A stretch of DNA of 64,000 nt, taken from contig DAOVPV010000006.1 in NCBI GenBank assembly GCA_030629005.1, forward strand, positions 3,472-67,471. The letters run 5' to 3'. This stretch comes from a bacterium. GTDB lineage: Bacteria > Babelota > Babeliae > Babelales > UASB340. Positions 2,701 to 28,294 of the stretch are shown here, in pieces; the stretch's first letter is position 1, and each line of letters starts with the position of its first letter. The notes under the pieces were generated by a model. That model had not been told where the DNA came from and ran no database searches. It saw only the letters and a program-made list of their open reading frames with translations. Position numbers and translations under genes: made by a program.

Positions 2701-2732
2701 GCTGGCCTGCCATACGTAGCCTTGGCGAAGTC
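2701..2732 (-). repeat. GC-rich tRNA-trailer repeat, short form
   Basis: GCTGGCCTGCCATACGTAGCCTTGGCGAAGTC is a version of the 2921-2976 and 14129-14193 module with an internal deletion. It abuts the tRNA-Ala 3' end. Confidence 0.7.
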
Positions 2733-2808
2733 TGGTGGAGGTAAGCGGAGTCGAACCGCTGGCCTTCCGCTTGCAAAGCGGACGCTCTACCAACTGAGCT
2801 ATACCCCC
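2733..2808 (-). tRNA. tRNA-Ala (anticodon UGC), CCA encoded
   Basis: The reverse complement GGGGGTATAGCTCAGTTGGTAGAGCGTCCGCTTTGCAAGCGGAAGGCCAGCGGTTCGACTCCGCTTACCTCCACCA folds as a cloverleaf. The G3:U70 Ala identity pair is present and the anticodon loop is TTTGCAA. Confidence 0.95.
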
Positions 2809-2833
2809 GAAAATTTCAAGTGGCCGTGCCTTT

Positions 2834-2876
2834 TGCCCTACTTCGCTTTAAAAAGCTACGAAGGGCATACTTCGCG
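2834..2876 (-). repeat. GC-rich tRNA-linked repeat module R2
   Basis: TGCCCTACTTCGCTTTAAAAAGCTACGAAGGGCATACTTCGCG has a close copy at 13833-13871. It contains two TACTTCGC boxes. Confidence 0.7.
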
Positions 2877-2920
2877 TCCTTTCTATCAATATCAGGCTTA
2901 AAACTATCTCTTTTAAAAGA

Positions 2921-3015
2921 CTGGCTTGCCATACGACCTGTCCTACGAAGCCACGTAGGGCGTAGTAGGAAGCCTTTACGCCGTCGCTAAAGCTATGGCG
3001 CACATGGGCGAAGTA
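2921..3015 (-). repeat. GC-rich tRNA-trailer repeat module R1 plus CCA-adjacent box
   Basis: CTGGCTTGCCATACGACCTGTCCTACGAAGCCACGTAGGGCGTAGTAGGAAGCCTT is about 90% identical to 14129-14185. The segment ends in GGCGAAGTA directly against the tRNA-Ile 3' end. Confidence 0.75.
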
Positions 3016-3092
3016 TGGTGGGCCTAAGTAGACTCGAACTACTGACCTCTCCGTTATCAGCGGAGTGCTCTAGCCAACTGAGCTATAGGCCC
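3016..3092 (-). tRNA. tRNA-Ile (anticodon GAU), CCA encoded
   Basis: The reverse complement GGGCCTATAGCTCAGTTGGCTAGAGCACTCCGCTGATAACGGAGAGGTCAGTAGTTCGAGTCTACTTAGGCCCACCA folds as a cloverleaf. The anticodon loop is CTGATAA. Confidence 0.95.
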
Positions 3093-3449: not shown

Positions 3450-3590
3450 ATACAAACTTTACATATAAAAAAAACAAACATAGGGGCCGAATGGCCCTTG
3501 CTCATTTAATGCTATAATCTATAATAATTAACGAATACTCCTCGCAACAAGCTAATGAAATATCATTCAAGAATTTGATTTTTTATTATT

Positions 3591-3667
3591 ACTGGACCCT
3601 GAAACAAGTTCAGGGTGACACACGCAGAATGCAAATTTGTCATCCTAAACTCGTTTCAGGATCCAGT
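3591..3667. repeat. nested palindromic MITE-like element, copy 1
   Basis: The arms ACTGGACCCTGAAACAAGTTCAGGGTGACA and TGTCATCCTAAACTCGTTTCAGGATCCAGT are 26/30 complementary. Each arm holds its own small hairpin (CTGAA-ACAAG-TTCAG). The element is intergenic, upstream of prfB. Confidence 0.8.
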
Positions 3668-3722: not shown

Positions 3723-4805
3723 ATGTTAATTGATGAATTAAGAGAAAAATTAAAAAATATAGAACCTGCAGTTATTGCCATTAAAGACTTTTGGCAAAAC
3801 TCCAACAATCAAGAAAAATTTCTAGAGCTTGATAAACAAATAAATCAAGAAAATTTCTGGCAAAACCCAGATAGAACAAATATTCTAAAAAAATATCTGT
3901 TTATTAAAAACCTAAAAGAAAATTTTGATGATGTAACTAATTCTTTTGAGGAAAACAAAGAACTAATAGAATTATTTGAAACAAACGAAAAAGAACTTAA
4001 AAAACTTATTGGCGAAATAAATTCATTGGTGAAAAAAACAAAAAAATTTAAACTCGAACTTTTGTTAAACAAACCAGAAGATTTATCCAATTGCTTTTTA
4101 AGTATAAACTCAGGAGCTGGTGGCACAGAGTCTCAAGACTGGGCAAATATGCTTTTACGCATGTATACCCGTTTTTGTGAACGAGAAAATTTTTCTATAG
4201 AAATGATAGATTGCCAGTCCGGGGAAGAAGCCGGCATAAAATCTGCTTCTTTATATATTAAAGGTAAAAATGCTTTCGGGTTTTTAAAAAGTGAAAATGG
4301 TATTCACAGATTAGTGCGTATTTCTCCATTTGATGCAAATAAAAGAAGACATACCTCATTTGCAGCAGTAAGCATCACACCTGAAGTGGAAGAAAAATCT
4401 GTAGAAATAAACGATAACGATTTAAAAATAGATACATTCAAAGCCGGTGGCGCTGGCGGACAACACGTAAACAAAACCGAATCTGCCATAAGAATTACAC
4501 ACATTCCATCAAAAATAGTTGTACAATGTCAAAGCCAACGCTCGCAAGGACAAAATAAACAAACTGCAATGAAAATGCTTGCTGCAAAACTTGTCGCAAA
4601 ACAAAAACAAGAAAAACTCGAAAAAGAACAATCTGTAGTAAAGAAAAAAATTGAGTGGGGTTCACAAATTAGATCTTACGTTCTACATCCATATAAAATG
4701 GTAAAAGACTTAAGAACAAATTATGAAAATCCTCAACCAGAATTAGTGCTAGACGGTAACCTAATGCCAATGATAGAAAAATATTTACTCGAATTTAACT
4801 CATAA
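3723..4805 (+). CDS. prfB: peptide chain release factor 2 (single uninterrupted ORF)
   Basis: The RF2-specific SPF tripeptide (RISPFDANKRRHTSF) and the GGQ motif (GGAGGQHVNKTES) are present. The length of 360 aa is close to E. coli RF2. Confidence 0.95.
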   Translation: MLIDELREKLKNIEPAVIAIKDFWQNSNNQEKFLELDKQINQENFWQNPDRTNILKKYLFIKNLKENFDDVTNSFEENKELIELFETNEKELKKLIGEINSLVKKTKKFKLELLLNKPEDLSNCFLSINSGAGGTESQDWANMLLRMYTRFCERENFSIEMIDCQSGEEAGIKSASLYIKGKNAFGFLKSENGIHRLVRISPFDANKRRHTSFAAVSITPEVEEKSVEINDNDLKIDTFKAGGAGGQHVNKTESAIRITHIPSKIVVQCQSQRSQGQNKQTAMKMLAAKLVAKQKQEKLEKEQSVVKKKIEWGSQIRSYVLHPYKMVKDLRTNYENPQPELVLDGNLMPMIEKYLLEFNS

Positions 4806-4809
4806 AAAA

Positions 4810-4830
4810 TTGGAAAAAACATTTAATGTT
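4810..4830 (+). repeat. 21-nt hairpin-core repeat, copy 2 (intergenic)
   Basis: TTGGAAAAAACATTTAATGTT has 2 mismatches to the consensus. It fills the prfB-tilS spacer, and its ATG is the first in-frame start of the tilS ORF. Confidence 0.8.
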
Positions 4831-5836
4831 CATGATTTTTGATAAATTAGAAAAAGAATTAAAAAATATTATCAACTTAAGCGACAAACCCAAAATTATC
4901 CTGGGCCTTTCTGGAGGGCCAGACTCTGTATTCTTATTTTATTTTTTAAAAAAGCTAGCTCAAGAAAATAAAATACAGTTAATTTGCGCACATCTAGACC
5001 ATGAATGGCGGAAAGAATCTAAATCTGATGTAGAGTTTTGTAAAAATCTATGTAAACAACATAAAATTAAATTTATTTCTAATACAACAAATGAATTAAA
5101 TCTTAATTTAAAATTTAATGGCTCCCAAGAAGAAATCGGCAGAAAATTAAGACGTCATTTCTTTAATAAAGTTTTAAAAGAAAATAACGCAAATTATGTT
5201 GCATTAGCTCATCACCTGCAAGACCAGCAAGAAACATTCTTTTGGAGAATTATTAGAGGGACAACATTAAACGGCTTAATTGGAATGAAAAAACTACAAC
5301 CTCCCTACATTCGGTCTTTATTAGATATAGAAAAAAAAGAAATCTTAAATTATTTAAATAAAAATAATATTACGTATTTAATAGACCAAACGAACGACTC
5401 TGATAAATATTTACGCAATAGGATTAGAAAATATGTAATCCCAAGCTTAGAAAAAGTCGACCCTAGATTTTCTAAGAAATTTGCTACAACTTTAAATTAT
5501 CTACAAGAAGAAGAAGCTTTTATTAAAAAAATCACAGAAAATAGTTTTAATAATCTTTTTAAAAAATCTGAAGAAACATTTAATGTTATAGAACAAAAGA
5601 ATTGTTCAGAAAATAAGTTTATCGGAAATCTCAAAGAATTTTTATCTTTAGATACCGTGTTACAAAAAAGAATTATTATTTATTGGTTGACAAAAGAAAA
5701 GGTAAAATTCAGCCCCAGCAATAATTTCTTACTAGAAATTTTACGATTTCTAAAAAATGAAAATGGCGGAGTTCACAAAATAGACAATAACTTCTCTATT
5801 TATAAAAAACAGAATAAATTCAAAATCACAGCTTAA
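4826..5836 (+). CDS. tilS: tRNA(Ile)-lysidine synthase
   Basis: The PP-loop SGGPDS and HLDHEWR are present, and the tilS-like C-terminal region follows. The start is ambiguous between ATG 4826, which lies inside the repeat, and ATG 4832. Confidence 0.9.
   Translation: MFMIFDKLEKELKNIINLSDKPKIILGLSGGPDSVFLFYFLKKLAQENKIQLICAHLDHEWRKESKSDVEFCKNLCKQHKIKFISNTTNELNLNLKFNGSQEEIGRKLRRHFFNKVLKENNANYVALAHHLQDQQETFFWRIIRGTTLNGLIGMKKLQPPYIRSLLDIEKKEILNYLNKNNITYLIDQTNDSDKYLRNRIRKYVIPSLEKVDPRFSKKFATTLNYLQEEEAFIKKITENSFNNLFKKSEETFNVIEQKNCSENKFIGNLKEFLSLDTVLQKRIIIYWLTKEKVKFSPSNNFLLEILRFLKNENGGVHKIDNNFSIYKKQNKFKITA
5567..5587 (+). repeat. 21-nt hairpin-core repeat, copy 3
   Basis: TCTGAAGAAACATTTAATGTT has 1 mismatch. 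It is in frame in tilS and read as SEETFNV. Confidence 0.9.
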
Positions 5837-7087: not shown

Positions 7088-8518
7088 GTGGCAGAAGTAG
7101 TAATTGTTGGTGCAGGACTAACAGGATTAACTGCAGCATATCATCTAGAAAAAAATAATTTTTACGATTTTAAGATTTTCGAAAAAGAAAATACACCTGG
7201 TGGACTTCTACGCTCTTTTACCAAAGATGGATTTACTTTTGATTTTACAGGCCACCTTTTACACATAAGCAACCCAGATTTTTATAATTTTTTAGACGAA
7301 ACTGCTGGCATCCAAAATTTTCTAGTTCAAAATAGAAGTTCTTTTATACATACAAATAATACATTCACAGACTATCCTTTTCAGACAAACCTTTATGGCC
7401 TTCCTGAAAAAATAATTTATGACGTAATCCTTGGATTTATAAATAGACAAAAAAATACTAGAAATCCAAAAAACTTTCATGAATGGGTACTAAAACATTT
7501 TGGTTCCGGTATCGGCAAACACTTTTTATTTCCATATAATCAAAAACTTTTAGCCTACAATATAAAACAAATAGAACACTCATGGACTGGAAGATTTGTA
7601 CCTTCTACAAACTTAAAAAATATAATTTATGGAGCATTAAATAAAAAAAATGCAAAAACAAACCTAGGTTATAATAGCAAATTTTATTATCCAAAATTCG
7701 GCGGCATACAGTATTTAATAGATAAATTACAAAATAAAATAAAAGCTAAAATAAATACCAACTTTAAACTATTCAAAATCGATCTAAAAAATAAACTTGT
7801 TCTTTTTGAAAATGGTCATATAGAAAAATTTAAACATCTTATTTCAACAATGCCACTAAATAATTTACTTAAATGCTCAATAGATAGGACAAATACAAAT
7901 TTACAAAAACAACACACAAATCTTTTATGTAATTCTGTAATAAACTTTAACTTGGGCTTTAATGCCAAAAATTTCGATACAAATTTTAAAAACAAACACT
8001 GGATATATTTTCCAGAAAAAAAATATCTTTTTTATAGACTAGGATTTTGGAATAACATATGCAAAAACTTAGCGCCAAACAATACATATTCAACATATGG
8101 TGAAGTTTCTTTTATGCCACAAACATCGAAAGAAACATTTAATGTTAAAGATCATAAACAAATAGAAAAATTAACAGAAAACTCAATTAATCAAACTATC
8201 AAATATTTAAATATTAATAAAAAAGACATATTAATAAAAAAAACATTAATACTTAAACATGCATATGTAATTTACAATACTTGGAGAAAAAAATATTTAA
8301 ATACTATTCACAAAGAATTAAAAATGGAAGGAATAAATTCTATCGGAAGATTTGGAGAATGGAAATATTCTAGCATGCAAGAAGCATTTATAGATGGAAA
8401 AAATACAGCTATTAAAATATTACATAATATGAAACAAGTAAGTCCCAAAAATTTTAGCCCCAAAAAAATAGAAGGCCTTATTAAACATGAACAAGCTACA
8501 AAACGTTTACAACAATAA
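7088..8518 (+). CDS. FAD-dependent oxidoreductase (amine oxidase / UDP-galactopyranose mutase-like fold)
   Basis: The ORF has a GTG start. A Rossmann dinucleotide motif VVIVGAGLTGLTAAYHL is followed by GGLLRSF..GFTFDFTGH. It lies next to a sugar-nucleotide epimerase gene. Confidence 0.7.
   Translation: MAEVVIVGAGLTGLTAAYHLEKNNFYDFKIFEKENTPGGLLRSFTKDGFTFDFTGHLLHISNPDFYNFLDETAGIQNFLVQNRSSFIHTNNTFTDYPFQTNLYGLPEKIIYDVILGFINRQKNTRNPKNFHEWVLKHFGSGIGKHFLFPYNQKLLAYNIKQIEHSWTGRFVPSTNLKNIIYGALNKKNAKTNLGYNSKFYYPKFGGIQYLIDKLQNKIKAKINTNFKLFKIDLKNKLVLFENGHIEKFKHLISTMPLNNLLKCSIDRTNTNLQKQHTNLLCNSVINFNLGFNAKNFDTNFKNKHWIYFPEKKYLFYRLGFWNNICKNLAPNNTYSTYGEVSFMPQTSKETFNVKDHKQIEKLTENSINQTIKYLNINKKDILIKKTLILKHAYVIYNTWRKKYLNTIHKELKMEGINSIGRFGEWKYSSMQEAFIDGKNTAIKILHNMKQVSPKNFSPKKIEGLIKHEQATKRLQQ
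8126..8146 (+). repeat. 21-nt hairpin-core repeat, copy 4
   Basis: TCGAAAGAAACATTTAATGTT has 1 mismatch. It is in frame and read as SKETFNV. Confidence 0.9.
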
Positions 8519-9398
8519 AAATGTGTTGGTAACTGGAGGTGCAGGCTTTATTGGTTCAAACATAGTAAAAGAGTTAGTAAAACTTAACACAAATGTCACA
8601 GTGTTAGATAATTTTTCAACCGGAAGCCTGAATAATCTCAAAGACGTGATTAATAGAATAAATATCATATATGCAGATGTAACAAACATTTTTTCATGCA
8701 AAAAAGCAGTCGCAAAAAAAGATATTGTTTTTCACCTAGCAGCATTAACTTCAGTAAACCAGTCAATCCAAAATCCTAACTTGTACTATAAAGTCAATAC
8801 TCAAGGTACTAAAAATTTACTGGAAGCATGTCGGCTTTGTAAGAACAAGATAAAATTTATATTTTCATCTTCAGCTTCTGTTTATGGAACAAAAAATACA
8901 CTTTGCTCAGAAGATGACACTCCAAATCCACAATCACCGTATGCTAAAAGCAAACTGGATAGTGAATTTTTATGCAAAAAATATAATCAAAAATATAATC
9001 TTAATACTGGAATTTTACGGTATTTTAACGTGTATGGAAAAAATCAAAATCCAAACGGAGAATATGCTGCGGTTGTTGCAAAATTTAAATATAATTTAAT
9101 TAATAATTTACCAATTACAATATTCGGTGATGGTAAACAAACTAGAGATTTCATACATGTAGATGATGTTGCCATGGCAAATATCTTACTAGCAACAAAA
9201 GAAGAAATGAACGGTGAAATCATAAATGTTGCATCTGGACAAAGTATAAATTTACTAAAATTAATTTCAAAATTAGAAACAGAACTAAATAAAAAAACTA
9301 CAAAAATAGAATTTCAACCAGCAAAAGTTGGTGATATAAAAAATTCAAAAGCAAATTGCCAAAAATATAAAAATTTAAGGTTTGATTTTCCCTTTTAA
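8487..9398 (+). CDS. NAD-dependent epimerase/dehydratase (extended SDR)
   Basis: VLVTGGAGFIGSN and the YAKSK catalytic motif are present. It overlaps the upstream gene by 32 nt. GTG 8523 is an alternative start. Confidence 0.85.
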   Translation: MNKLQNVYNNKNVLVTGGAGFIGSNIVKELVKLNTNVTVLDNFSTGSLNNLKDVINRINIIYADVTNIFSCKKAVAKKDIVFHLAALTSVNQSIQNPNLYYKVNTQGTKNLLEACRLCKNKIKFIFSSSASVYGTKNTLCSEDDTPNPQSPYAKSKLDSEFLCKKYNQKYNLNTGILRYFNVYGKNQNPNGEYAAVVAKFKYNLINNLPITIFGDGKQTRDFIHVDDVAMANILLATKEEMNGEIINVASGQSINLLKLISKLETELNKKTTKIEFQPAKVGDIKNSKANCQKYKNLRFDFPF

Positions 9399-10601: not shown

Positions 10602-10702
10602 ATTAAATTTATATTATTTTTTTTGTTTTAAAAAATAATATATTTGTTAAAATCTTTTAACATGTAAAGTTTTTAGTTGTGGTTATTTTGAAAGGAATTT
10701 GT

Positions 10703-11437
10703 ATGAAGAAGTTTTTAAAACTTATTGCATTTTGTTTATTATTTTCTGTAAGTGCAAACGCTGTAAGCAAAATTACATTAGAAAAACTCGAAAATATTGT
10801 ACGAAAACTTGAAGATTTGAACAATAATCCTGAAAATCCCGAAAATATAAATAATAAAATAAAAAATATCGAAACAGAATTTGAACTACTACAAAAAGAA
10901 GATCCAAATTTAGAAAACAATGAACTTTCTGAAAAAACAAAAGTTTTAATTGAAACCGTAAAATCTTTTAATGCAGCAGAAAAAAAAGCTTTCTTAAAAA
11001 AATATAAAAAAGAAATTGCTGTTTTAACTGCATTAGTCGCTGCAAGTGCAGCTGGTGGATTTGCTTTAAAGAAAGCATCAGCTAAGCAAGCTGCAAAAGA
11101 ATTAGATAGAATAGAAAACAAAGAAGAATCTAATCGATTTATGAAATGGGCTTCAAAACATGCTAAATTTCTAAAAAAAGAAAAGAAAGAAGAAAAAGAA
11201 AAAGTTGAAGAGATCGTAGAAAATTCAGAAAGCAATATCGAAGAGACGCCAATAAGAATAAGCCGATTGGATCGATTTTGGAATTTTGTTACTCGAGCTA
11301 AAATAGCAAATTCAGAAAGCGATATCGAAGAAGCACCAATAAAAACAGGCCTATTGGATCGATTTTGGAATTTTGTTTCTCGAGCTAAATCTGAAACATC
11401 TGATTCTAGTGAATTATCTGATTCTTTCGACAATTAA
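10703..11437 (+). CDS. secreted coiled-coil protein with 29-aa tandem repeat
   Basis: The signal peptide MKKFLKLIAFCLLFSVSANA begins at an internal ATG of ORF 10679-11437. An 87-bp tandem duplication at 11222-11395 encodes two SES(N/D)IEE.PI....LDRFWNFV.RAK units. The mirror ORF on the - strand was rejected. Confidence 0.7.
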   Translation: MKKFLKLIAFCLLFSVSANAVSKITLEKLENIVRKLEDLNNNPENPENINNKIKNIETEFELLQKEDPNLENNELSEKTKVLIETVKSFNAAEKKAFLKKYKKEIAVLTALVAASAAGGFALKKASAKQAAKELDRIENKEESNRFMKWASKHAKFLKKEKKEEKEKVEEIVENSESNIEETPIRISRLDRFWNFVTRAKIANSESDIEEAPIKTGLLDRFWNFVSRAKSETSDSSELSDSFDN

Positions 11438-11506: not shown

Positions 11507-12769
11507 CTATACAACCAAAACTTTTAAAAATTCTTCTAAAGAAGTATCTCCTGAATAAACTTTCTCTAAAGCATCAGCCTCTATAAATTTCATATTTCTT
11601 TGTAATAGCTTTTTTTTAATTTGTGCAAAATCAGATTTTTTAGAAATTAAATCTCGAAGTTCATCATCTACTTTTAACAATTCGAAAACACCTAAGCGCC
11701 CCTTATAACCAAGATTAAAACAGTGATTACAACCACACGGTCTATTAATTTCACTCAAATTAATATTTTCTAAATTAATATTTTTATTTTTAATATATTC
11801 CATTTCTTGATCTGTAATAGCATCTTGAGATTTACAATTATTACAAAGTTTACGAACCAATCTTTGAGATAAAACACCAGACAATGCCGCATTAATTAAA
11901 TAAGGGTCAACGCCCATATTAACTAATCTTGTAATAGAACTAACTGTATCATTGGTGTGTAAAGTACTAAAAACCAAATGCCCCGTTAACGCTGCTTCTA
12001 TAGCAATTTTGGCTGTCTCCTTATCTCGTATTTCTCCAACCATTATAATATCCGGATCTTGTCGTAAAATAGAACGTAAACCTTTTGGAAAAGTAAAACC
12101 GGACTTTTCATTTATCTGACTTTGAACAACACCATCGATGTTATACTCAACAGGATCTTCCATTGTAACAATATTTTTCTGGCCATTATTAAGATATGAC
12201 AATATAGAATACAAAGTCGTCGTTTTACCAGAGCCAGTTGGCCCTGTTATTAAAAAAAATCCATGAGGCCGCCCGACTAAATCTTGCAAACAAGAAACCA
12301 TTTTTGAATTCATACCAAGATTATCTAGGCTAATTTTATTTTTAGAAGCATCAAGTATGCGTATAACCATCTTTTCGCCATAAATAGTTGGAAATGTAGA
12401 AATACGCATATCAACCAAATTATGATCCGACGGTCCCCTAAAAACATTTGCCAAAATTTTGCCATCTTGAGGCATACGCTTTTCAGCAATATCTAAACCT
12501 GACAAGATTTTCAATCTCGAAATAATAGACATACCTATATCAGAATCTATAGAATCTTGATCATACAAAACACCATCAATCCTATAACGAACTCTTAGAT
12601 TTTCTTGATTCTGTTCTAAATGAAGATCTGATGCATTATAATCTACACCAATAAATAAAAGGGAATCCACCAAATCTATTACTTGATCATTGGGAATTCC
12701 CTTTTTTAATTTTTCTTCTTTAGAAAAAAGACTATAAACAAACTCTCTCTCTGCCTTTTTTTCCGCCAC
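11507..12769 (-). CDS. GspE/PilB-family secretion or type IV pilus ATPase
   Basis: Walker A GPTGSGKTTT, MVGEIRD, GHLVFSTLHTND and a tetracysteine motif (CNNC...CNHC) are present. It is short (420 aa) and lacks the long N-terminal domain. Confidence 0.9.
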   Translation of the reverse strand: MAEKKAEREFVYSLFSKEEKLKKGIPNDQVIDLVDSLLFIGVDYNASDLHLEQNQENLRVRYRIDGVLYDQDSIDSDIGMSIISRLKILSGLDIAEKRMPQDGKILANVFRGPSDHNLVDMRISTFPTIYGEKMVIRILDASKNKISLDNLGMNSKMVSCLQDLVGRPHGFFLITGPTGSGKTTTLYSILSYLNNGQKNIVTMEDPVEYNIDGVVQSQINEKSGFTFPKGLRSILRQDPDIIMVGEIRDKETAKIAIEAALTGHLVFSTLHTNDTVSSITRLVNMGVDPYLINAALSGVLSQRLVRKLCNNCKSQDAITDQEMEYIKNKNINLENINLSEINRPCGCNHCFNLGYKGRLGVFELLKVDDELRDLISKKSDFAQIKKKLLQRNMKFIEADALEKVYSGDTSLEEFLKVLVV

Positions 12770-12776
12770 TATTAAT

Positions 12777-13184
12777 TTATCCTAATTTATATCCAATTAA
12801 AAAACCAACAGTACAAGAAACAAAAGTCACCAAATTTTGCTTAATCCACTCAAAAGCAGTATTCAAAAGCATTCCAAAATCTGATGTTGGATCAAGGCCT
12901 AAAAGAAGGTTTAAAGCAGTCCAATCTATAGCTAAAACATTTTTATACTCAAAAACCAAAACTATTACCATTGCAAATAAAATAGTAAAAAAAACAAATT
13001 TAAAATATTTTTTAAATAAAAATCCAATAGCAAAGCCTAAACCAAAATATACTGCAGCCTGAACAGCCTGAGAAGACGATCCTCCAATTTGTTCCGACCA
13101 TTTTTTTATATCAACAGCCTCCCAAATAGACTTAATCCAATTTATAAAACTTTCGAATCTTCCCGGAGCAATGGTATCTTGCAT
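12777..13184 (-). CDS. small integral membrane protein, FUN14-like
   Basis: 135 aa with 3-4 hydrophobic helices. GLGFAIGFLFKK and the C-terminal GFLIGYKLG resemble the FUN14 family pattern. Confidence 0.55.
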   Translation of the reverse strand: MQDTIAPGRFESFINWIKSIWEAVDIKKWSEQIGGSSSQAVQAAVYFGLGFAIGFLFKKYFKFVFFTILFAMVIVLVFEYKNVLAIDWTALNLLLGLDPTSDFGMLLNTAFEWIKQNLVTFVSCTVGFLIGYKLG

Positions 13185-13665: not shown

Positions 13666-13832
13666 ACATAACTCCTAAAATTCTGGCATGATTTCTAATT
13701 AGTCAACACAAACACACAAACAACACAAACTTTTTATAAGCATATCTACGATGTATATTGACATGATTTTTCTTTGTCAAGAAATTGCATAAATAATCGC
13801 TACGCCAATCGTAGCTTAATCAAATTTCTATT

Positions 13833-13871
13833 AGCCCTACTTCGCTCTAAAGAACTACGAAGAGCACACGG
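13833..13871 (-). repeat. GC-rich tRNA-linked repeat module R2
   Basis: AGCCCTACTTCGCTCTAAAGAACTACGAAGAGCACACGG is a copy of 2834-2876. Its TACTTCGCTC (13838-13847) is the perfect complement of the tRNA-Leu trailer at 13927-13936. Confidence 0.7.
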
Positions 13872-13936
13872 CAGAATAAACTCCGCTACTTCATCCCAAG
13901 TAATTTACTTGTAAATCATATCGAGGGAGCGAAGTA

Positions 13937-14024
13937 TGGTGCCGAGGGCCGGACTCGAACCGGCACAGGTTTAAAACCCGAGGGATTTTAAGTCCCTTGC
14001 GTCTACCAATTCCGCCACCCCGGC
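13937..14024 (-). tRNA. tRNA-Leu (anticodon UAA), long variable arm, CCA encoded
   Basis: The reverse complement is GCCGGGGTGGCGGAATTGGTAGACGCAAGGGACTTAAAATCCCTCGGG...GGTTCGAGTCCGGCCCTCGGCACCA. The anticodon loop is CTTAAAA. Confidence 0.95.
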
Positions 14025-14128
14025 ATATAATAACCGTTATAATTATGTACAATTTTTAAATATTAGCAACATTTTTTTGTTTTATTTTTTAGAAAAAAAA
14101 TTTTAGTGAATATTTTAAATTGAAGAAA

Positions 14129-14193
14129 TGGCCGTGCCATACGACTTGTCCTACGAAGCCACGTGGGGCGTAGTAGGAAGCCTTGGCGAAGTA
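14129..14193 (-). repeat. GC-rich tRNA-trailer repeat module R1 plus CCA-adjacent box
   Basis: The sequence is TGGCCGTGCCATACGACTTGTCCTACGAAGCCACGTGGGGCGTAGTAGGAAGCCTTGGCGAAGTA. It has an internal imperfect hairpin around the palindrome CCACGTGG. It abuts the tRNA-Cys 3' end. Confidence 0.75.
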
Positions 14194-14267
14194 TGGAGGC
14201 GGCACCCGGAATTGAACCGGGGATAGCGGTTTTGCAGACCGCGGCCTTACCACTTGGCTATGCCGCC
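14194..14267 (-). tRNA. tRNA-Cys (anticodon GCA), CCA encoded
   Basis: The reverse complement is GGCGGCATAGCCAAGTGGTAAGGCCGCGGTCTGCAAAACCGCTATCCCCGGTTCAATTCCGGGTGCCGCCTCCA. The U73 discriminator typical of tRNA-Cys is present. The 5' end lies 6 nt after the miaB stop codon. Confidence 0.95.
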
Positions 14268-18429: not shown

Positions 18430-20328
18430 TTAAAAATTTAATTCTTCCCAAAGAGCTAAATTTTTATTTAGCTCTTTTTCAAGTTTATTTAAAATATATA
18501 AAGTTTGATCGTAATCCTTTGAACCATACTCTAAGCTTTCAAACTTTTTAGTTAAAAGCTCTAACTCAACTTCTTGTTTTGATATTTTAGTCTCTAAGCG
18601 CCTAATAAGTTTTCTTTTTTCATAATCGTTTTCTTTGAGTTTTGTTTTATGACAAATATCCTTAGCTTTAGATTCTATAATTTCTGCATCTTGCAAAACT
18701 TCTTTCTGCGCATTTTTTTGAACCAAAAAAGAATCGTAATTACCTTTATACTTATAAGCTGAATCTTCTTTTAGTTCTATAATAGAAGTTGCAAGATTAT
18801 TTAAAAAATCTCTATCGTGAGAAACAAATAAAACAGTTCCATCATATTTTTTAAGAACATTTAACAAAACATCTTTAGATTCTATATCAAGGTGATTTGT
18901 AGGCTCATCTAATAATAAAAAATTTGCATTTTGTAGCAAAACTTTTATCATTGCAACACGATTTTTTTCACCACCACTCAAAACACTTACTCTTTTGTCA
19001 ACATCATCACCACTAAAAAGAAATGCTCCGAGAAGCCCACGAACTCTCTGTCTTTGCTCCGATGTTTTGCAAGCAGATTCTACCTCTTTAATTAAATCAT
19101 TTTTTAAATTTAAAGATTTATTTTGATCTTGTTCAAAAAAAGCAGTTTTTACATTATGACCAAGCTCAAAAGAACCTGCATTACTTTTCAATTTATTCAT
19201 AATAATGTTGAGCACCGTTGATTTACCCTGGCCATTGGGTGCTACAATAGCAACCATTTCACCACGCTCAATTTCAAACGAAATATCTTTAAATATTTTT
19301 TTATCAGCAAAACTTTTTGATAATTTTTTCACAGTTAAAACAATTTTTCCGGTTCGCACTACTTTAGGTAAGCTAAAACGCATTATCTGTGATTTAGGTT
19401 CTAGCTTTACCATCTCTATTTTGTCTAAAGCCTTTAGCCTACTTTGAACCATTTTCGCTTTTGTAGCGGACGCCCTAAATCTATCGATTAACTCTCGTTC
19501 TTTTTTTAAAAACTTTTGTTGTTCCACAAATTTCTTTTCCAAAAGTTCTTGATTATGTTTTTTCTGTTCTAGATATTTAGAATAATTACCTGTAAAAATA
19601 TTTATATGACCTAAGCTTACCTCATAAATTTGATTACAAAGTTTATCTAAAAAATATCTATCGTGGCAAACCAACATAAAACCAAAGCCGGAAGAAGCAT
19701 TTAATGTTTGGGATCTTTTTAAAAAATCCAAAAACCAATCTTTTGCAACCAAATCCAAATGGTTTGTAGGTTCATCAAATAAATAAAAGTCAGCTTTTTG
19801 TAATAAAAGTTTTGCCAAAACCAACCGCATTTTCCAACCAACAGAAAGAGTTTGTACAGGATCTGTAAATTGTTGTTCGCGAAACCCAAGCCCCAATAAA
19901 ATATTTTTTGCTTCTGTTATTTTTTTTTCAAATTCTAATTCTTGCAAATTGATTTGTAACAAAGAATATCTCTCTAAATCTTCTACACTGCTATCATCTA
20001 ATTTTTTTTCTAAAGAATTATACTCTTCTACTAAATCACCTAAATTACCTAACATTATTTTATAGATATTAAGAGCTTCTCTAAAAATAGTCTTCTCTGA
20101 TAGAAGGATTACGTTTTGTGGTAAATATGCAACCTTTTTGTCGCCCTGGATATTAATTTGACCAGAGTCATACTCCTGTTGCCCTGCAATAATTTTTAGC
20201 AATGTCGTTTTTCCAGAGCCATTTCTACCAACAAGACCAATTCTTTGATTTGAATTAACTGTAAAAGAAATATTATCAAAAATGGCACATTGCCCAAAAT
20301 TTAAGCTTAAATTTTTTACTATAAACAT
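18430..20328 (-). CDS. ABC-F family ATPase (Uup/YheS/EttA-like)
   Basis: Two ABC cassettes are present: GRNGSGKTT with LSVGWKMR, and APNGQGKST with LSGGEKNR. There are no TM domains, and the C-terminus is a coiled coil. Confidence 0.9.
   Translation of the reverse strand: MFIVKNLSLNFGQCAIFDNISFTVNSNQRIGLVGRNGSGKTTLLKIIAGQQEYDSGQINIQGDKKVAYLPQNVILLSEKTIFREALNIYKIMLGNLGDLVEEYNSLEKKLDDSSVEDLERYSLLQINLQELEFEKKITEAKNILLGLGFREQQFTDPVQTLSVGWKMRLVLAKLLLQKADFYLFDEPTNHLDLVAKDWFLDFLKRSQTLNASSGFGFMLVCHDRYFLDKLCNQIYEVSLGHINIFTGNYSKYLEQKKHNQELLEKKFVEQQKFLKKERELIDRFRASATKAKMVQSRLKALDKIEMVKLEPKSQIMRFSLPKVVRTGKIVLTVKKLSKSFADKKIFKDISFEIERGEMVAIVAPNGQGKSTVLNIIMNKLKSNAGSFELGHNVKTAFFEQDQNKSLNLKNDLIKEVESACKTSEQRQRVRGLLGAFLFSGDDVDKRVSVLSGGEKNRVAMIKVLLQNANFLLLDEPTNHLDIESKDVLLNVLKKYDGTVLFVSHDRDFLNNLATSIIELKEDSAYKYKGNYDSFLVQKNAQKEVLQDAEIIESKAKDICHKTKLKENDYEKRKLIRRLETKISKQEVELELLTKKFESLEYGSKDYDQTLYILNKLEKELNKNLALWEELNF
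19688..19708 (+). repeat. 21-nt hairpin-core repeat, copy 5
   Basis: CCGGAAGAAGCATTTAATGTT has 2 mismatches. It lies in + polarity inside a - strand gene, where it is read as TLNASSG. Confidence 0.85.
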
Positions 20329-21825: not shown

Positions 21826-22596
21826 TTACTTCGATTTTTCAGCCAAATCTAAATAAAGGTCTAACGATTTATCTACTACATTAAAAATAATTTGATAATA
21901 ATCTGAATAATCACCAGACATTTCTGCTTTAGAAATAGACCTTATATAAGCAAGCTTATCCTCAACTTTTATTATTGCAGGAGGAAATCCAGACTGCATT
22001 AAAATCAAATCCATAAGTAGTCTTGCGCTTCGACCATTTCCATCAACAAAAGGGTGGATCATAACCAATTTTATGTGAGCATCAGCTGCAATTTTAACAG
22101 GATGTTCTTTTGTACAATGCAACCATTTAATAAAATCATCCATCAATTCTGGTACTTTTATAGGCTCTGGTAGCACAGAATCGGAACCCGCTATTTTTAC
22201 TGCTATTTTTCGCAATTTACCTGCATTTTTATCATCTATTTGTTTTAAAATTAAATAGTGAAAATTTAAAAAATCTTTTAAATTTATATCTTGAATTTTT
22301 TTACCTACAAATTTTTTTATATAATCAATAGCAAAAGCTAGATTTTTAGCTTCCAAATGCTCACGAATACTCTTGCCTCCAATAGTAATTCCTTTTTCAA
22401 CAACAAGTGTAGTTTCTTGTTTCGTTAAAGTATTACCCTCAATGGCGTTCGAATTATAAGTTGATTCTATCTTAAACCAATCATCCAAATTCTTTACAAG
22501 CTCTTTTGATAAAGGCCTAAGACTATCTAATTTATTTTTTTTATTATCAATAATTTCTAATAGTTTACCCATGGTATTACCTCGTTTATTCGTCAC
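21826..22596 (-). CDS. Fic-domain protein (AMPylase family)
   Basis: The Fic motif HPFVDGNGRSARLL is present. An N-terminal SNAIEG matches the intramolecular inhibitory motif (S/T)xxxE(G/N). Confidence 0.9.
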   Translation of the reverse strand: MTNKRGNTMGKLLEIIDNKKNKLDSLRPLSKELVKNLDDWFKIESTYNSNAIEGNTLTKQETTLVVEKGITIGGKSIREHLEAKNLAFAIDYIKKFVGKKIQDINLKDFLNFHYLILKQIDDKNAGKLRKIAVKIAGSDSVLPEPIKVPELMDDFIKWLHCTKEHPVKIAADAHIKLVMIHPFVDGNGRSARLLMDLILMQSGFPPAIIKVEDKLAYIRSISKAEMSGDYSDYYQIIFNVVDKSLDLYLDLAEKSK

Positions 22597-22619
22597 AACT
22601 TACATAAATTTATTTAATA

Positions 22620-22699
22620 ACTGGATACTGAAACAAGTTCAGCATGACAATTGAAATACCAAGTCCTCTTGTCATTCTGAACTTGTTTCAGAATCTAGT
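22620..22699. repeat. nested palindromic MITE-like element, copy 2
   Basis: The arms are AACTGGATACTGAAACAAGTTCAGCATGACA and TGTCATTCTGAACTTGTTTCAGAATCTAGT. It is intergenic between the NurA-like and Fic genes. Confidence 0.8.
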
Positions 22700-22721: not shown

Positions 22722-23909
22722 TTAAACGCCAATACCACGTTTTTTAATACTCTTTTGCGAAAAAAATAATCTTTTATTTTGCTCAAAAGCTTCCCGCTGT
22801 AATAAACTATAAAAAAATTCACGGTCTGGACCCTTTACAACTGCAGCTTCATGCGCATAAGCCAAAGTTACAGGATAACCTAAACCCTTTTTTATTTGGT
22901 CTAAAGCAACCGCGGACAAAAAATCTAACATATCTTTATCTTGCGCAATATAGGCGAAAGTTTCTATACGCACAACTTCTACATCTGCATTTAAATAAAA
23001 AAAACATGGCTTTAGATGTTCTGGATAACTCTTTGTAATTTTTGAATTACTAAAAAAAATATTACTACGTTCATTTATATTTAAATAAGTTTTTGCTATT
23101 CGTGTATCTATTAAATTATCTACAGCCTTACATGGAAAATCACTATAAACTCTGTGACAAGAAATACATTCTGCAAAATCAAACCGACATAAACCTAGCT
23201 TTATTAAATTTACAAGCTCTTTGCTTTTAGGAAAACTTATAAAACCAGCTATTATTTTTTTATTCTCATAAAATTTTTGCAAAATATTTAAGTATGAATT
23301 CAAGAACAAATCTTTAATTTCTTCTGGTTTAGATTCTAAAAACCAAAAAATTACCGTACCATCTACAAACGCAATATCTATATTTTCTTCTAAAGTTAAT
23401 TTTAGCAAATTTAATAATTCAAGTTCCTCTCTCTTTAAATCTACAATATCATTAGAAAAATTTATCTTATTATTTTGATCTAAAAAATCTTGAATTATAA
23501 AAAGAGTTGGCTCTGAATTTATTTTTACAGAACTATTTTCGTCGGAAGAAACATTTAATCTTGAAGAAACATTTAATATTTTTGAATATTTTATCTGACA
23601 ACTACCAATATTTATTAAAAAACAACCTGAATTAGAAATATTTCGGTCTGGATATATCTGAGAACCATCTACAGATAGTATAGAATAATCATTTTTTTGA
23701 ATTGGAATTTTAAATTTATCAGACAAATTACCAGCCCACGATGGAACCAAAAAACTTGCGTTAGAATTTTCTACTTTAGCTTTAAATTTAGAATCTACAG
23801 AAATACTTTGCCATTTTTCCTGAGCTATACTTGACTGCTCTGTAAAATTATTAAAAAGCTTATCTGCATTTTTTTTTAGTTGTAAAAAAAGACTATTTTT
23901 ATTTAACAT
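22722..23909 (-). CDS. NurA-domain nuclease-like protein
   Basis: ILSVDGSQIYPD, FVDGTVIFW and the C-terminal GYPVTLAYAHEAAVV resemble the NurA nuclease family pattern from memory. No HerA-like partner is adjacent. Confidence 0.45.
   Translation of the reverse strand: MLNKNSLFLQLKKNADKLFNNFTEQSSIAQEKWQSISVDSKFKAKVENSNASFLVPSWAGNLSDKFKIPIQKNDYSILSVDGSQIYPDRNISNSGCFLINIGSCQIKYSKILNVSSRLNVSSDENSSVKINSEPTLFIIQDFLDQNNKINFSNDIVDLKREELELLNLLKLTLEENIDIAFVDGTVIFWFLESKPEEIKDLFLNSYLNILQKFYENKKIIAGFISFPKSKELVNLIKLGLCRFDFAECISCHRVYSDFPCKAVDNLIDTRIAKTYLNINERSNIFFSNSKITKSYPEHLKPCFFYLNADVEVVRIETFAYIAQDKDMLDFLSAVALDQIKKGLGYPVTLAYAHEAAVVKGPDREFFYSLLQREAFEQNKRLFFSQKSIKKRGIGV
23542..23580 (+). repeat. 21-nt hairpin-core repeat, copies 7 and 8 (tandem, 18-nt period)
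   Basis: The sequence is TCGGAAGAAACATTTAATCTT followed by GAAGAAACATTTAATATT. In the - strand gene it is read as ILNVSS-RLNVSS. Confidence 0.85.
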
Positions 23910-24047: not shown

Positions 24048-24857
24048 TTAAAAATCTTTACCAAAAGATAAATCTGCTAATTCTTGATAAAGCTCTTCAT
24101 CTTCTTTTAATTTCTCAGGCAATTCCATCTTTTCCTCTTTTTCTACATCATCAGATTCTTCATCATCTGGCAAATCCAAAATCATTTTTTCATCATCAAT
24201 AATCTTCTCTTCATCTTTTGGCTCTTCTGCAATAACTTCTTCTATTATTTCAACTTCAGGCTCTTCAACATCTTCTGTTATTTCAACTTCAGGTTCTTCA
24301 ATCTCTTGCTCTTCAATCTCTTGCTCTTCAAACTCCTGCTCTTCAACCTCTTGCTCTTCAAACTCCTGAGCTACAGGCTCAACAACAATCTTTTCTTCTA
24401 TTATTTCAACTTCAGGTTCTTCAACTTTTTCTATAACTTCTTCGACAACCGGCTCTGCAACCTCTTGCTCTTCAACCCCTTGCTCTTCAACCGTTGATTC
24501 AAAAACACTTGGCTCTTCAACATCTTCTGTTACAACTTCAGCTACGGGCTCAACAACAATCTTTTCTTCTATTATTTCAACTTCAGGTTCTTCAACATCT
24601 TCTGTTACAACTTCAGCAACAGGCTCTACAACCTCTTGCTCTTCAACCTCAGGTTCTTCAACTTTTTCTATAACCTCTGTTACAACCTCAGCAACAGGCT
24701 CAGCTTTAATCTCTTCTTCAACAGCCGGCTCAACTACCGACGCCGTTAATTCCGAATCCGAAAATTCGGAACCTAAATCAAAACCGGCTTCTGAATTTAT
24801 AAAAGCTATAAATAATATTTGCACTATTATTAATAATAGATAAATTCTTTTATTCAT
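24048..24857 (-). CDS. secreted, extremely acidic E/V-rich repeat protein
   Basis: A signal peptide MNKRIYLLLIIVQILFIAFINSEAG is followed by repeated EPEVEIIEEKIVVEPVAEVVTEDVEEP units. Identical 50-nt blocks occur at 24376-24425 and 24547-24596, spaced 171 nt (57 codons) apart. Confidence 0.75.
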   Translation of the reverse strand: MNKRIYLLLIIVQILFIAFINSEAGFDLGSEFSDSELTASVVEPAVEEEIKAEPVAEVVTEVIEKVEEPEVEEQEVVEPVAEVVTEDVEEPEVEIIEEKIVVEPVAEVVTEDVEEPSVFESTVEEQGVEEQEVAEPVVEEVIEKVEEPEVEIIEEKIVVEPVAQEFEEQEVEEQEFEEQEIEEQEIEEPEVEITEDVEEPEVEIIEEVIAEEPKDEEKIIDDEKMILDLPDDEESDDVEKEEKMELPEKLKEDEELYQELADLSFGKDF

Positions 24858-28158: not shown

Positions 28159-28183
28159 AGCAAGAATCCTTATTTTTTTATAA

Positions 28184-28294
28184 GGACTAGATCCCGCATC
28201 AAGTGCGGGATGACAACAAGAGCCTCGCTTAAATCTTATTCAAAGACCTTTTATTAACTTCGAACAATAATAGATCCAATCCAGAATCTAGTCC
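28184..28294. repeat. nested palindromic MITE-like element, copy 3 (degenerate right arm)
   Basis: The left arm is GGACTAGATCCCGCATCAAGTGCGGGATGACA, with the hairpin CCCGCA-TCAAG-TGCGGG. The termini GGACTAGAT / ATCTAGTCC form a 9-bp inverted repeat. It is intergenic between sufU and pepA. Confidence 0.7.

Follow-up and report, generated by a model that had tools for sequence, protein, structure and literature searches.

Seven extra residues in an ABC-F ATPase of an uncultured Dependentiae bacterium coincide with a dispersed, co-oriented 21-nt repeat that resembles selfish DNA

Seven additional residues in the ABC-F ATPase

Why does an ABC-F ATPase of an uncultured Dependentiae bacterium carry seven additional residues just before the conserved HDRYFLD block, and where does the DNA encoding them come from? 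The window, which is the whole stretch of 64,000 nt analysed here, presents the gene and the insert as follows:

18430 to 20328, minus strand: ABC-F ATPase, YheS-like, 632 aa, host gene of the unit at 19688
19688 to 19708, plus strand: repeat unit CCGGAAGAAGCATTTAATGTT within the ABC-F gene, which runs on the minus strand; adds 7 residues

The protein has the Pfam architecture ABC_tran, ABC_tran_Xtn and ABC_tran, that is, two ATPase domains and a linker without a membrane domain, and both domains retain Walker A, signature, Walker B and H-loop motifs, which are intact and invariant in the alignment. It thus possesses the two ABC domains, the linker and the intact motifs, and lacks the membrane domain, as expected of an ABC-F protein. 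A Foldseek search with the predicted model matched EttA, YbiT, YheS and Uup, while the best PDB sequence match was YheS (E = 1e-66). The preliminary description had used the EttA/Uup spacing as its reference, which proved a fair guide, although the protein is nearer to YheS than to EttA.

As that description had counted, the minus-strand reading frame runs ...DWFLDFL-KRSQTLNASSGFGFMLVC-HDRYFLD, so that 18 residues separate FL from HDRYFLD. All 22 aligned Dependentiae orthologues (52-72% identity) show an 11-residue spacing of the FLK-NSNFGF type and a 7-column gap opposite the insert, and the same 7-residue gap is found in E. coli YheS. The claim of seven extra residues is therefore borne out, and the 18-residue spacing is absent from these motif-free orthologues (22/22 have 11). 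The second ATPase domain of the same protein also keeps the usual 11 residues (VL-KKYDGTVLFVS-HDRDFLN). In the DNA, the sequence is AAA AAT TCT AAT TTT GGT in three syntenic orthologues and AAA AGA TCC CAA ACA TTA AAT GCT TCT TCC GGC TTT GGT in the window. Removal of SQTLNAS, as proposed earlier, does restore the spacing. However, the exact residues depend on the register chosen (SQTLNAS, QTLNASS, or a unit-exact deletion leaving KRSHFGF), because TCC/GGA stands on both sides of the insert.

The insert occupies residues ~205-214, bounded by K204 and F215. In the AlphaFold2 (AF2) model (mean pLDDT 84), a helix (193-205) is followed by a coil (206-215) and a strand (216-220), so that the insert lies in a low-confidence loop (pLDDT <50 at 209-212) joining the helix that follows the D-loop to the H-loop strand. 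According to this model, the turn between the D-loop helix and the strand bearing the H-loop histidine in the first ATPase domain would be enlarged from 3 to 10 surface residues. A tolerated position is thereby supported for the block, since it falls in coil and the motifs are intact. Most likely the protein has stayed functional and the insert itself serves no purpose; for the ABC-F protein it is probably neutral.

A dispersed repeat with a single orientation

The additional DNA was said to be a repeat found elsewhere and read here from the opposite strand, and this holds. CCGGAAGAAGCATTTAATGTT matches the consensus TCGGAAGAAACATTTAATGTT of a dispersed, lineage-specific 21-nt repeat of this bacterium at 19 of 21 positions, with two differing. 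Since the unit lies on the plus strand and the gene on the minus strand, it is read as TLNASSG instead of SEETFNV, or (Q)TLNASS(G) with its neighbours. At up to 3 mismatches, the consensus 21-mer has six matches in the window against 0.01 expected (100 shuffles). With the threshold at up to 5 mismatches, eight units were found at seven places, all on the plus strand (starts at 486, 4810, 5567, 8126, 19688, 23542 plus 23560, and 58518). Besides the ABC-F unit, these are:

486 to 506, plus strand: consensus unit in the plus-strand gene of asparaginyl-tRNA synthetase (AsnRS), read SEETFNV
4810 to 4830, plus strand: unit with 2 mismatches at the prfA-tilS spacer (20 nt)
5567 to 5587, plus strand: unit with 1 mismatch in the plus-strand tilS gene, read SEETFNV, at the boundary of the catalytic and C-terminal domains
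8126 to 8146, plus strand: unit with 1 mismatch in a plus-strand amine-oxidase-family gene, read SKETFNV
23542 to 23580, plus strand: tandem of a 21-nt and an 18-nt unit (39 nt) in the minus-strand NurA gene, read ILNVSSRLNVSSD
58518 to 58538, plus strand: consensus unit in a plus-strand PilN-domain gene, read SEETFNV

An nhmmer profile of the repeat recovered no additional decayed copies, the scores of the copies standing well clear of noise, and extending the contig by 6 kb and 10 kb gave no further copies. Divergence among the copies is ~5% (1-2 positions differ), a low value that may stem from constraint, if the DNA motif is functional, instead of from youth. The distribution is patchy, with four copies in 8 kb, none from 24 to 58 kb, and about one per 9 kb overall.

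The units keep the plus orientation whichever direction the host gene runs. One orientation in 7/7 places gives a two-sided p of 0.016, a value that rests on seven places of one contig and that local clustering could inflate, as four of the seven fall inside 8 kb. Cumulative GC skew is monotonic, with a single sign, along the stretch bearing these places, and the unit sits on the C-rich (lagging-type) strand. Six of the seven places are intragenic. Because the unit is translated as SEETFNV in plus-strand genes and as TLN(A/V)SS in minus-strand genes, and because most differences between copies alter the encoded residue, the conserved signal is at the DNA level and not at the protein level.

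Unit-sized insertions in other host genes

Insertion size equals the repeat unit, as had been noted from the sequence, in all four host genes that could be tested rigorously (ABC-F, AsnRS, amine oxidase and NurA): 7 residues in each of the first three and 13-14 residues for the 39-nt tandem of NurA, with exact unit-length gaps in their relatives. For AsnRS the gap was exact against the AsnRS structure 6pqh_A, and for the amine oxidase in two syntenic orthologues. The NurA tandem faces a gap of 13-14 residues in three aligned syntenic orthologues, and two more orthologues (381 aa) are also without it. The insertions of a whole unit, or of the 21+18-nt double unit, are clean and in frame, keep the flanking codons and introduce no stop.

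In TilS, PDB alignments end at the motif, and 13 orthologues have 2-13 fewer residues at the insert (10-13 in 12 of 13) in a variable linker; as judged from these alignments, the insertion is consistent with a unit-sized addition, but the linker is variable. The intergenic unit at 4810 contains the ATG annotated as the tilS start codon (4826). The AsnRS unit and the unit of the PilN-domain gene were reproduced in the independent Logan assembly (L109 and L107, respectively). The window also carries type IV pilus genes, including a PilB/T-type ATPase and PilN. Taking these host genes together, at least five housekeeping genes of this Dependentiae bacterium have received a copy of the repeat in their coding sequence.

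Ends, flanks and structure of the unit

The ends of the unit are accompanied by one conserved flanking feature, which at the ABC-F gene is:

19712 to 19713, plus strand: GA dinucleotide at +4/+5 after the ABC-F unit, spaced exactly 21 nt from the GA that occupies unit positions 4-5

NNNGA follows the unit directly on its 3' side in 7/7 places, with GA at +4/+5; the chance of this is ~7e-8 after correction for offsets and dinucleotides. No flanking position other than GA at +4/+5 is conserved among the seven places. The start of the unit itself, TCGGA, shows the same NNNGA pattern, and GA at unit positions 4-5 is repeated 21 nt on in six of the seven places, the copy at 8126 having AA at 4-5. 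The downstream GA either marks the target site or is a flanking repeat of 2 nt. A longer target-site duplication of the form GGA...GGA was seen at two copies and was rejected, as the third base fails elsewhere and only GA is constant.

Terminal inverted repeats were not found, the ends TCGGAAG... and ...AATGTT not being mutually inverted. The sole palindrome, AACAT-TTA-ATGTT, has a 5-bp stem and a 3-nt loop (-2 kcal/mol, z = -0.8). A hairpin or REP-like nature was discarded, since the stem-loop is no more stable than shuffled sequences. In the Rfam search for structured RNA, four tRNAs and nothing else were detected. HUH Rep proteins recognize the nonanucleotide TAATATT/AC (slash, nick), and the unit ends in ...TAATGTT; this likeness was given no weight, as the sequence is AT-rich.

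Distribution in relatives and in sequence collections

Five syntenic relatives (89 kb) contain no copy of the repeat, and the family is therefore lineage-specific. Searches with the 18-mer core in 185,579 species genomes gave, among the matches listed, single chance-like ones in unrelated phyla, and for Rickettsiales the listed matches were likewise single and chance-like. With the degenerate 21-mer, metagenome and viral collections yielded 19 and 1 single-copy matches, respectively, all of the AT-richest variants. No multi-copy locus was found among the matches listed in these scans. One Dependentiae match (L076) agrees at 20/21 positions, is read TLNVSSD and lies on the C-rich strand. Its host protein shows just a 2-residue gap at the motif when compared with the window orthologue, and the match, at first sight a second genome carrying the repeat, was therefore treated as a probable chance one.

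Another related Dependentiae genome (L112) carries a ~27-nt GC-rich hairpin repeat within the coding sequences of NurA and ABC-F (-8.6 kcal/mol, z = -3.9). It resembles the 21-nt unit in being short, intragenic and lineage-specific and in occupying the same two genes, but it is unrelated in sequence, forms a strong hairpin and lies at other protein positions. Small intragenic repeats are thus suggested to be recurrent in the Dependentiae clade.

Origin of the insert

We consider it reasonably probable that the seven extra ABC-F residues represent one copy of a tiny copy-and-insert element and not a motif raised by point mutation; as a family, the repeat looks like unusually small selfish DNA living within genes. 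Transposable elements spread by copying and insertion, unlike uptake sequences (PMC2817400), and a replication-linked orientation bias is described for single-strand transposons in the accounts cited (PMC5027513, PMC3971601). The activity that inserts the units would work in trans, with selectivity for site and strand, and its gene would lie elsewhere in the genome; a Pfam search of the ~80 kb contig found no gene for a transposase, recombinase, reverse transcriptase or HUH enzyme. Plausibly its substrate would be DNA made single-stranded at the replication fork, and this would account for the fixed polarity on a contig from a single replichore. Such an activity would recognize or cut 3 nt 5' of GA (unit end /TCGGA, target /NNNGA), and selection would act as a filter, so that a copy would persist only if it lay at a tolerant place and in either of the two stop-free frames. 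To our knowledge, no mobile element is as short as 21 nt, and no known enzymology fits, because the unit is shorter than any known mobile element. Tentatively, and with clearly less confidence, the repeat may represent a new class of ultra-short mobile DNA of 21 nt, moved in trans by an enzyme cutting 3 nt upstream of GA, with fixed replication polarity and surviving mainly in essential genes. This survival would follow because a stop-free unit of seven codons would be invisible to selection in surface loops.

Several of the same observations might also be read otherwise. The 21-mer might be a functional strand-polar chromosomal signal, i.e., a site for a host protein like Ter, KOPS, Chi or an uptake sequence, kept by selection, in which case the in-frame peptides would be a cost borne by the coding DNA. 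The co-orientation of 7/7 places on a single-skew stretch and the very uniform core (~5% divergence, no decayed copies) would suit such a signal, as would the type IV pilus genes (PilB/T-type ATPase, PilN) in the window. Chi and KOPS have densities similar to one per ~9 kb, near the spacing of the unit, but they are enriched on the leading strand, while the strand that carries the unit is C-rich and of lagging type. Polar motifs such as Chi, KOPS and Ter switch orientation with replication direction across the genome, and the ~80 kb contig covered here has a single skew sign; moreover, 21 specified bases far exceed the information in known polar motifs, and the copies are patchy (four in 8 kb, none from 24 to 58 kb). 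Such motifs come by mutation and recombination, yet 4/4 testable sites are exact insertions, and uptake sequences occur in both orientations (PMC2817400). An inserting mechanism would be needed even if the motif were functional. We therefore regard a functional signal as improbable. We give about the same small chance to the copies being repair scars, namely an abundant short DNA or cDNA captured at breaks or stalled forks through microhomology-mediated end joining or template switching; candidate sources are the product of a reverse transcriptase or of something like a retron, and a piece freed by a site-specific nuclease. GA at 4-5 and again 21 nt later in 6/7 places (the downstream GA in 7/7) is what junction microhomology leaves, the 18-nt period of the NurA tandem resembles slippage or concatemer capture, and a transposase is absent nearby. 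However, if microhomology set the register, the 3 nt preceding the second GA would belong to the captured DNA and should be constant, yet they vary, while TCG is conserved ahead of the first GA. The register TCG...GTT is the better fit at two junctions, favoured by the conserved K that follows the amine-oxidase insert and by CAC versus AAT in ABC-F. Break repair alone would not yield a single orientation at 7/7 places, and no source template was found in the 80 kb.

The remaining explanations carry far less weight than a copy-and-insert element. A synthetic oligonucleotide or chimeric reads built into the contig is very improbable, although a single sample stands behind all data and the first eight bases of the unit, TCGGAAGA, are shared with part of the Illumina adapter AGATCGGAAGAGC. 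The adapter similarity stops after these eight bases and was rejected as coincidence; the copies differ at 1-2 positions, one being a tandem with an 18-nt period, all are clean insertions with intact flanking codons and no stop, and NNNGA follows every one. In addition, the Logan assembly (SRR13892594), made with a second assembler, is identical at the two copies that it covers. Hardly any credence is left for a long ABC-F loop that is ancestral or selected at the protein level and lost elsewhere, its likeness in DNA being coincidental. Surface loops do vary in length, which is the only point in its favour, but the loop is short in 22/22 orthologues across Dependentiae and in E. coli YheS, the DNA matches the repeat at 19/21 positions where 0.01 matches are expected by chance, and the same DNA gives a different peptide in plus-strand genes. 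Orthologue spacing, repeat match and strand-dependent peptide together refute it.

Comparison with known repeat systems

Rickettsia palindromic elements (RPE) are palindromic, ~100-150 bp long and encode a conserved peptide, according to the cited account (PMC10969869). On that account, the 21-nt unit shares with them a dispersed, lineage-specific occurrence in frame within unrelated housekeeping genes of an intracellular bacterium with an AT-rich reduced genome, an inserted peptide at a fold-compatible position and the lack of an associated transposase. In-frame insertion in unrelated conserved genes was indeed found here (ABC-F, AsnRS, amine oxidase, NurA). Unlike RPE as described there, the unit is ~5-7 times shorter with a weak 5+5 palindrome; it is also read on either strand to give two unrelated peptides, is strictly co-oriented on the chromosome and has the NNNGA target signature. 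Neither the length and extended palindrome of RPE nor RPE sequence homology was found, and the host is a Dependentiae MAG and not Rickettsia.

REP/REPIN sequences (mobilized by RAYT, a Y1 HUH enzyme) and IS200/IS605 elements, which transpose as single strands, offer a second comparison (PMC3333891, PMC3116915, PMC5027513). They comprise non-autonomous repeats of very small size (20-40 nt) that are mobilized in trans, lack a classical target-site duplication and show, through the single-strand mechanism, a bias of strand or replication direction, all of which recall the 21-nt unit. REP sequences are extragenic, with stable hairpins and a conserved 5' tetranucleotide, whereas the unit is intragenic at 6/7 places with a weak hairpin; a stable imperfect palindrome was not found, nor was a RAYT/TnpA gene in the 80 kb. 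For IS200/IS605, no Y1 HUH transposase was found in the 80 kb, the single hairpin is weak and the upstream flank is not fixed. These elements have subterminal hairpins at both ends and insert 3' of a fixed tetra- or pentanucleotide, while the conserved flank of the unit, NNNGA, lies downstream, so that the likeness is limited to strand polarity.

The uptake sequences USS and DUS of Pasteurellaceae and Neisseriaceae (PMC2817400, PMC2346458) are likewise short motifs, strongly over-represented in one lineage with pilus genes present, and frequent inside genes with reading-frame preferences and a preference for tolerant protein parts. Competent cells preferentially take up DNA that bears them. 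Their origin by mutation and recombination, nearly equal orientations, density of ~1 per kb and 9-12-nt core set them apart from the unit, with its clean unit-sized insertions, one orientation and ~1 copy per 9 kb. Uptake-sequence sites are ungapped in 131 of 140 cases in H. influenzae and 86 of 91 in N. meningitidis (PMC2817400); neither equal orientations nor gap-free orthologue alignments were found for the unit (7/7 plus; 4/4 exact gaps). MITEs (PMC10969869) are similarly non-autonomous and multi-copy, with in-frame fusions possible, but they measure tens to hundreds of bp and have terminal inverted repeats and target-site duplications; the unit shows no terminal inverted repeats and, as a duplication, a possible 2-nt GA repeat only.

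Implications

For selfish repeats within protein-coding genes, the palindromic elements of Rickettsia (~100-150 bp) are essentially the known case. If the copy-and-insert reading is true, a non-palindromic, strand-polar unit would do the same in an unrelated phylum; in-frame colonization of essential genes would then be more general in small AT-rich intracellular genomes, the size limit for a mobilizable unit would be much lower, and a strand-specific insertion activity with the simple target rule /NNNGA would be indicated. Should the repeat be a new class of mobile DNA, 21 nt would be the smallest known transposable unit and, together with the hairpin repeat of L112, it would suggest that Dependentiae genomes are routinely colonized by intragenic mini-elements. 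In highly conserved proteins (ABC-F, AsnRS, TilS and NurA) the inserts form loops private to the lineage, and such inserts can mislead alignment-based phylogeny, checks of MAG contamination and gene calling; for the last of these, an example is the copy that provides the annotated start codon of tilS.

Insertion of the repeat in the ABC-F gene

The window, which belongs to the 96-kb scaffold_62 of a Dependentiae (TM6) metagenome-assembled genome (ENA ERZ23498683), has a GC content of ~30% and a monotonically falling cumulative GC skew. The copy of the 21-nt unit studied here is carried by the following gene:

18430-20328, minus strand, ABC-F ATPase, 632 aa

The product reads DWFLDFL-KRSQTLNASSGFGFMLVC-HDRYFLD, which bears out the preliminary description of 18 residues between FL and HDRYFLD, and the second ATPase domain of the same protein has a spacing of 11 (VL-KKYDGTVLFVS-HDRDFLN). 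All 22 Dependentiae orthologues aligned (52-72% identity) carry FLK-(N/K/T)(S/A)x-FGF with a 7-column gap opposite the extra residues of the window, and the 7-residue gap recurs in E. coli YheS, the best relative with a solved structure; motif-free orthologues are thus short by seven residues rather than sharing the longer spacing. The plus strand at 19688-19708 is CCGGAAGAAGCATTTAATGTT and the gene lies on the minus strand, so that the added DNA is, as had been described, the repeat read from the opposite strand. Three syntenic orthologues read AAA AAT TCT AAT TTT GGT, while the window reads AAA AGA TCC CAA ACA TTA AAT GCT TCT TCC GGC TTT GGT; removal of exactly 19688-19708 leaves KRSHFGF, compared with KNSNFGF in the orthologues.

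An AlphaFold model of the protein (23-sequence alignment, mean pLDDT 84) predicted a helix (193-205), a coil (206-215, with pLDDT <50 at 209-212) and a strand (216-220) that runs towards His222 of the H-loop, which would place the seven-residue block in a surface coil before the H-loop strand. The equivalent turn of the second domain has only three residues, structural matches of the model include ribosome-bound EttA, YbiT, YheS, and Uup, and all catalytic motifs are invariant in the alignment with the 22 orthologues; the insert was therefore presumed to make a surface turn longer, probably with neutral effect.

The 21-nt repeat family

At ≤3 mismatches, the 21-mer occurs at six places in the window, against 0.01 expected from shuffles, and looser matching gave eight units at seven places:

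486, plus strand, unit copy
4810, plus strand, unit copy
5567, plus strand, unit copy
8126, plus strand, unit copy
19688, plus strand, unit copy
23542 and 23560, plus strand, tandem pair with a period of 18 nt
58518, plus strand, unit copy

Copies differ from the consensus TCGGAAGAAACATTTAATGTT at 0-2 positions, and a profile search of the window found nothing between the eight units and noise, so that old decayed copies are absent. Translation of the unit uses a single frame in each gene direction, giving S(E/K)ETFNV in the four plus-strand genes (AsnRS, TilS, amine oxidase, and a PilN-domain protein) and (T/R/I)LN(A/V)SS in the two minus-strand genes (ABC-F and NurA). Because the peptides are unrelated between gene directions and most differences between copies alter the encoded residue, it is the DNA and not the peptide that is conserved; protein-level explanations are effectively excluded.

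One copy (4810-4830) lies in the 20-nt prfA-tilS spacer and starts 5 nt past the stop codon of prfA. The ATG annotated as the start of tilS (4826 according to the gene callers) is part of this copy, and a second ATG follows 6 nt later. As well, the unit resembles a ribosome-binding site followed by ATG (GGAAGAAACATTTAATG). In the NurA tandem (23542-23580), the G of AATGTT is gone from both units (C in one, A in the other), and its period is 18 nt instead of 21; either an 18-nt core may have slipped, or 3 nt may have been deleted after two insertions.

Insertions in other host genes

The size of the insertion equals the repeat unit in other genes too: relative to 6pqh_A, AsnRS has seven extra residues at NSEETFN; relative to two syntenic orthologues, amine oxidase has seven at SKETFNV; and relative to three syntenic orthologues, NurA has 13-14 at ILNVSSRLNVSSDE, which corresponds to the 39-nt double unit. 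Two further NurA orthologues lack the insert as well. TilS has extra residues at the motif in a linker that is variable, and is only consistent with insertion. These results support the interpretation of the preliminary description.

Alignment of the flanks of the seven places showed no conserved upstream position, while GA at +4/+5 downstream is invariant (7/7; chance ~7e-8 after correction). As the unit starts with TCGGA, copies have one NNNGA pentamer at their own start and another directly after them, at a distance of exactly 21 nt (the 8126 copy has AA at positions 4-5). Either insertion obeys a target-site rule and takes place 3 nt before GA, or the GA pair is a flanking repeat of 2 nt. 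The TCG...GTT register is favoured by two junctions, namely the conserved K right after the amine-oxidase insert and CAC versus AAT in ABC-F. The sole internal symmetry, AACAT-TTA-ATGTT, has a folding energy of -2 kcal/mol, a value that shuffled sequences also reach.

Distribution and possible origin

The Logan assembly of SRR13892594, an independent assembly of a sequencing run of the source sample, reproduced both copies that it covers, and an artefact is effectively excluded. No further copy was found in 6 kb and 10 kb of additional scaffold sequence, none at ≤4 mismatches in five syntenic relatives (89 kb; ABC-F identity 66-72%), and collection scans gave single, chance-like matches only, among the matches listed. 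A 20/21 match (TCCGAAGAAACATTTAATGTT) lies at 4505-4525 of the Dependentiae Bin_496 contig WJIY01000017.1, on the C-rich strand; the minus-strand gene that contains it translates it as TLNVSSD, with the frame and polarity seen in the window. However, the gap relative to the orthologue from the window is of only 2 residues, and NNNGA does not follow the match, which is probably due to chance.

Clean unit-sized additions at unrelated sites bear the signature of copying and insertion, by which the repeat would have spread. Findlay and Redfield (PMC2817400) attribute uptake-type motifs to mutation and recombination and describe them as present in either orientation and as mostly gap-free in alignments, unlike the unit-sized insertions found here. 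Among known elements, those that behave most like the repeat are the Rickettsia palindromic elements, which insert in frame into housekeeping genes (PMC10969869); however, these are palindromic and ~5-7 times longer than the 21-nt unit.

The orientation is fixed whatever the direction of transcription (7/7 places, p = 0.016), and the stretch has a single skew sign, which suggests a strand-specific mechanism linked to replication, although the evidence for this polarity comes from seven places, of which four fall within 8 kb, in ~80 kb of one genome. Such behaviour is documented for single-strand transposons (PMC5027513, PMC3971601). Their defining Y1 transposase, subterminal hairpins, and fixed 5' target are all absent for the unit in those ~80 kb, so the resemblance is functional and not one of membership; moreover, the same ~80 kb encode no transposase, recombinase or reverse transcriptase, and Rfam detected tRNAs only. 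Besides copying and insertion, a functional polar motif and microhomology-mediated capture of an abundant short DNA are both live alternatives.

Other repeats and gene content

The window encodes an archaeal-type NurA nuclease (22722-23909), a Fic protein, a eukaryote-like Ser/Thr kinase, ankyrin proteins, and a large PLA2_B phospholipase (further coordinates of the set: 21826-22596, 47364-48314, 53193-56900), a content typical of intracellular Dependentiae; NurA adjoins ABC-F, an adjacency conserved across relatives. In a sister lineage (contig k141_861558, ENA ERZ27254744), a different, GC-rich hairpin repeat TCATCCCGGGCAAGGACCCGGGATCTA (9110-9149, 11126-11165, 11683-11722, and 13091-13130; -8.6 kcal/mol, z = -3.9) sits in the coding sequence of the same two host genes, NurA and ABC-F, and coincides with private insertions in P0009 (e.g., HALSSRARTRDPE); small intragenic repeats may be recurrent in this clade. 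In NurA of that contig (8726-9988), 36 additional residues (NKAFDKVDSTTQQAAALTTNAPFALSEVEGVAISKNAQ) lie between two conserved cysteine motifs, a private insertion that neither the window nor the two other orthologues aligned share.

Another GC-rich hairpin repeat (…GGACCCTGAAACAAGTTCAGGGTGACA) has three intergenic copies in the window, just downstream of genes (3580-3620, 22609-22649, and 28175-28215), and looks terminator-like or REP-like. Two tRNA pairs lie within duplicated blocks (2713-3092 and 13831-14267), which also contain a 65-nt segment of 86% identity and GC-rich palindromes, GCCCTACTTCGCTTTAAAAAGCTACGAAGGGC among them. The ORF at 24048-24857 (minus strand, 269 aa; no Pfam family on record) consists mostly of repeats with a period of 15 nt, which encode acidic pentapeptides rich in E/Q/V, and shows higher-order repeats of 75 and 171 nt. 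Finally, an 87-nt tandem duplication (11217-11389, 88% identity) lies inside ORF 10679-11437, which has no assigned function.
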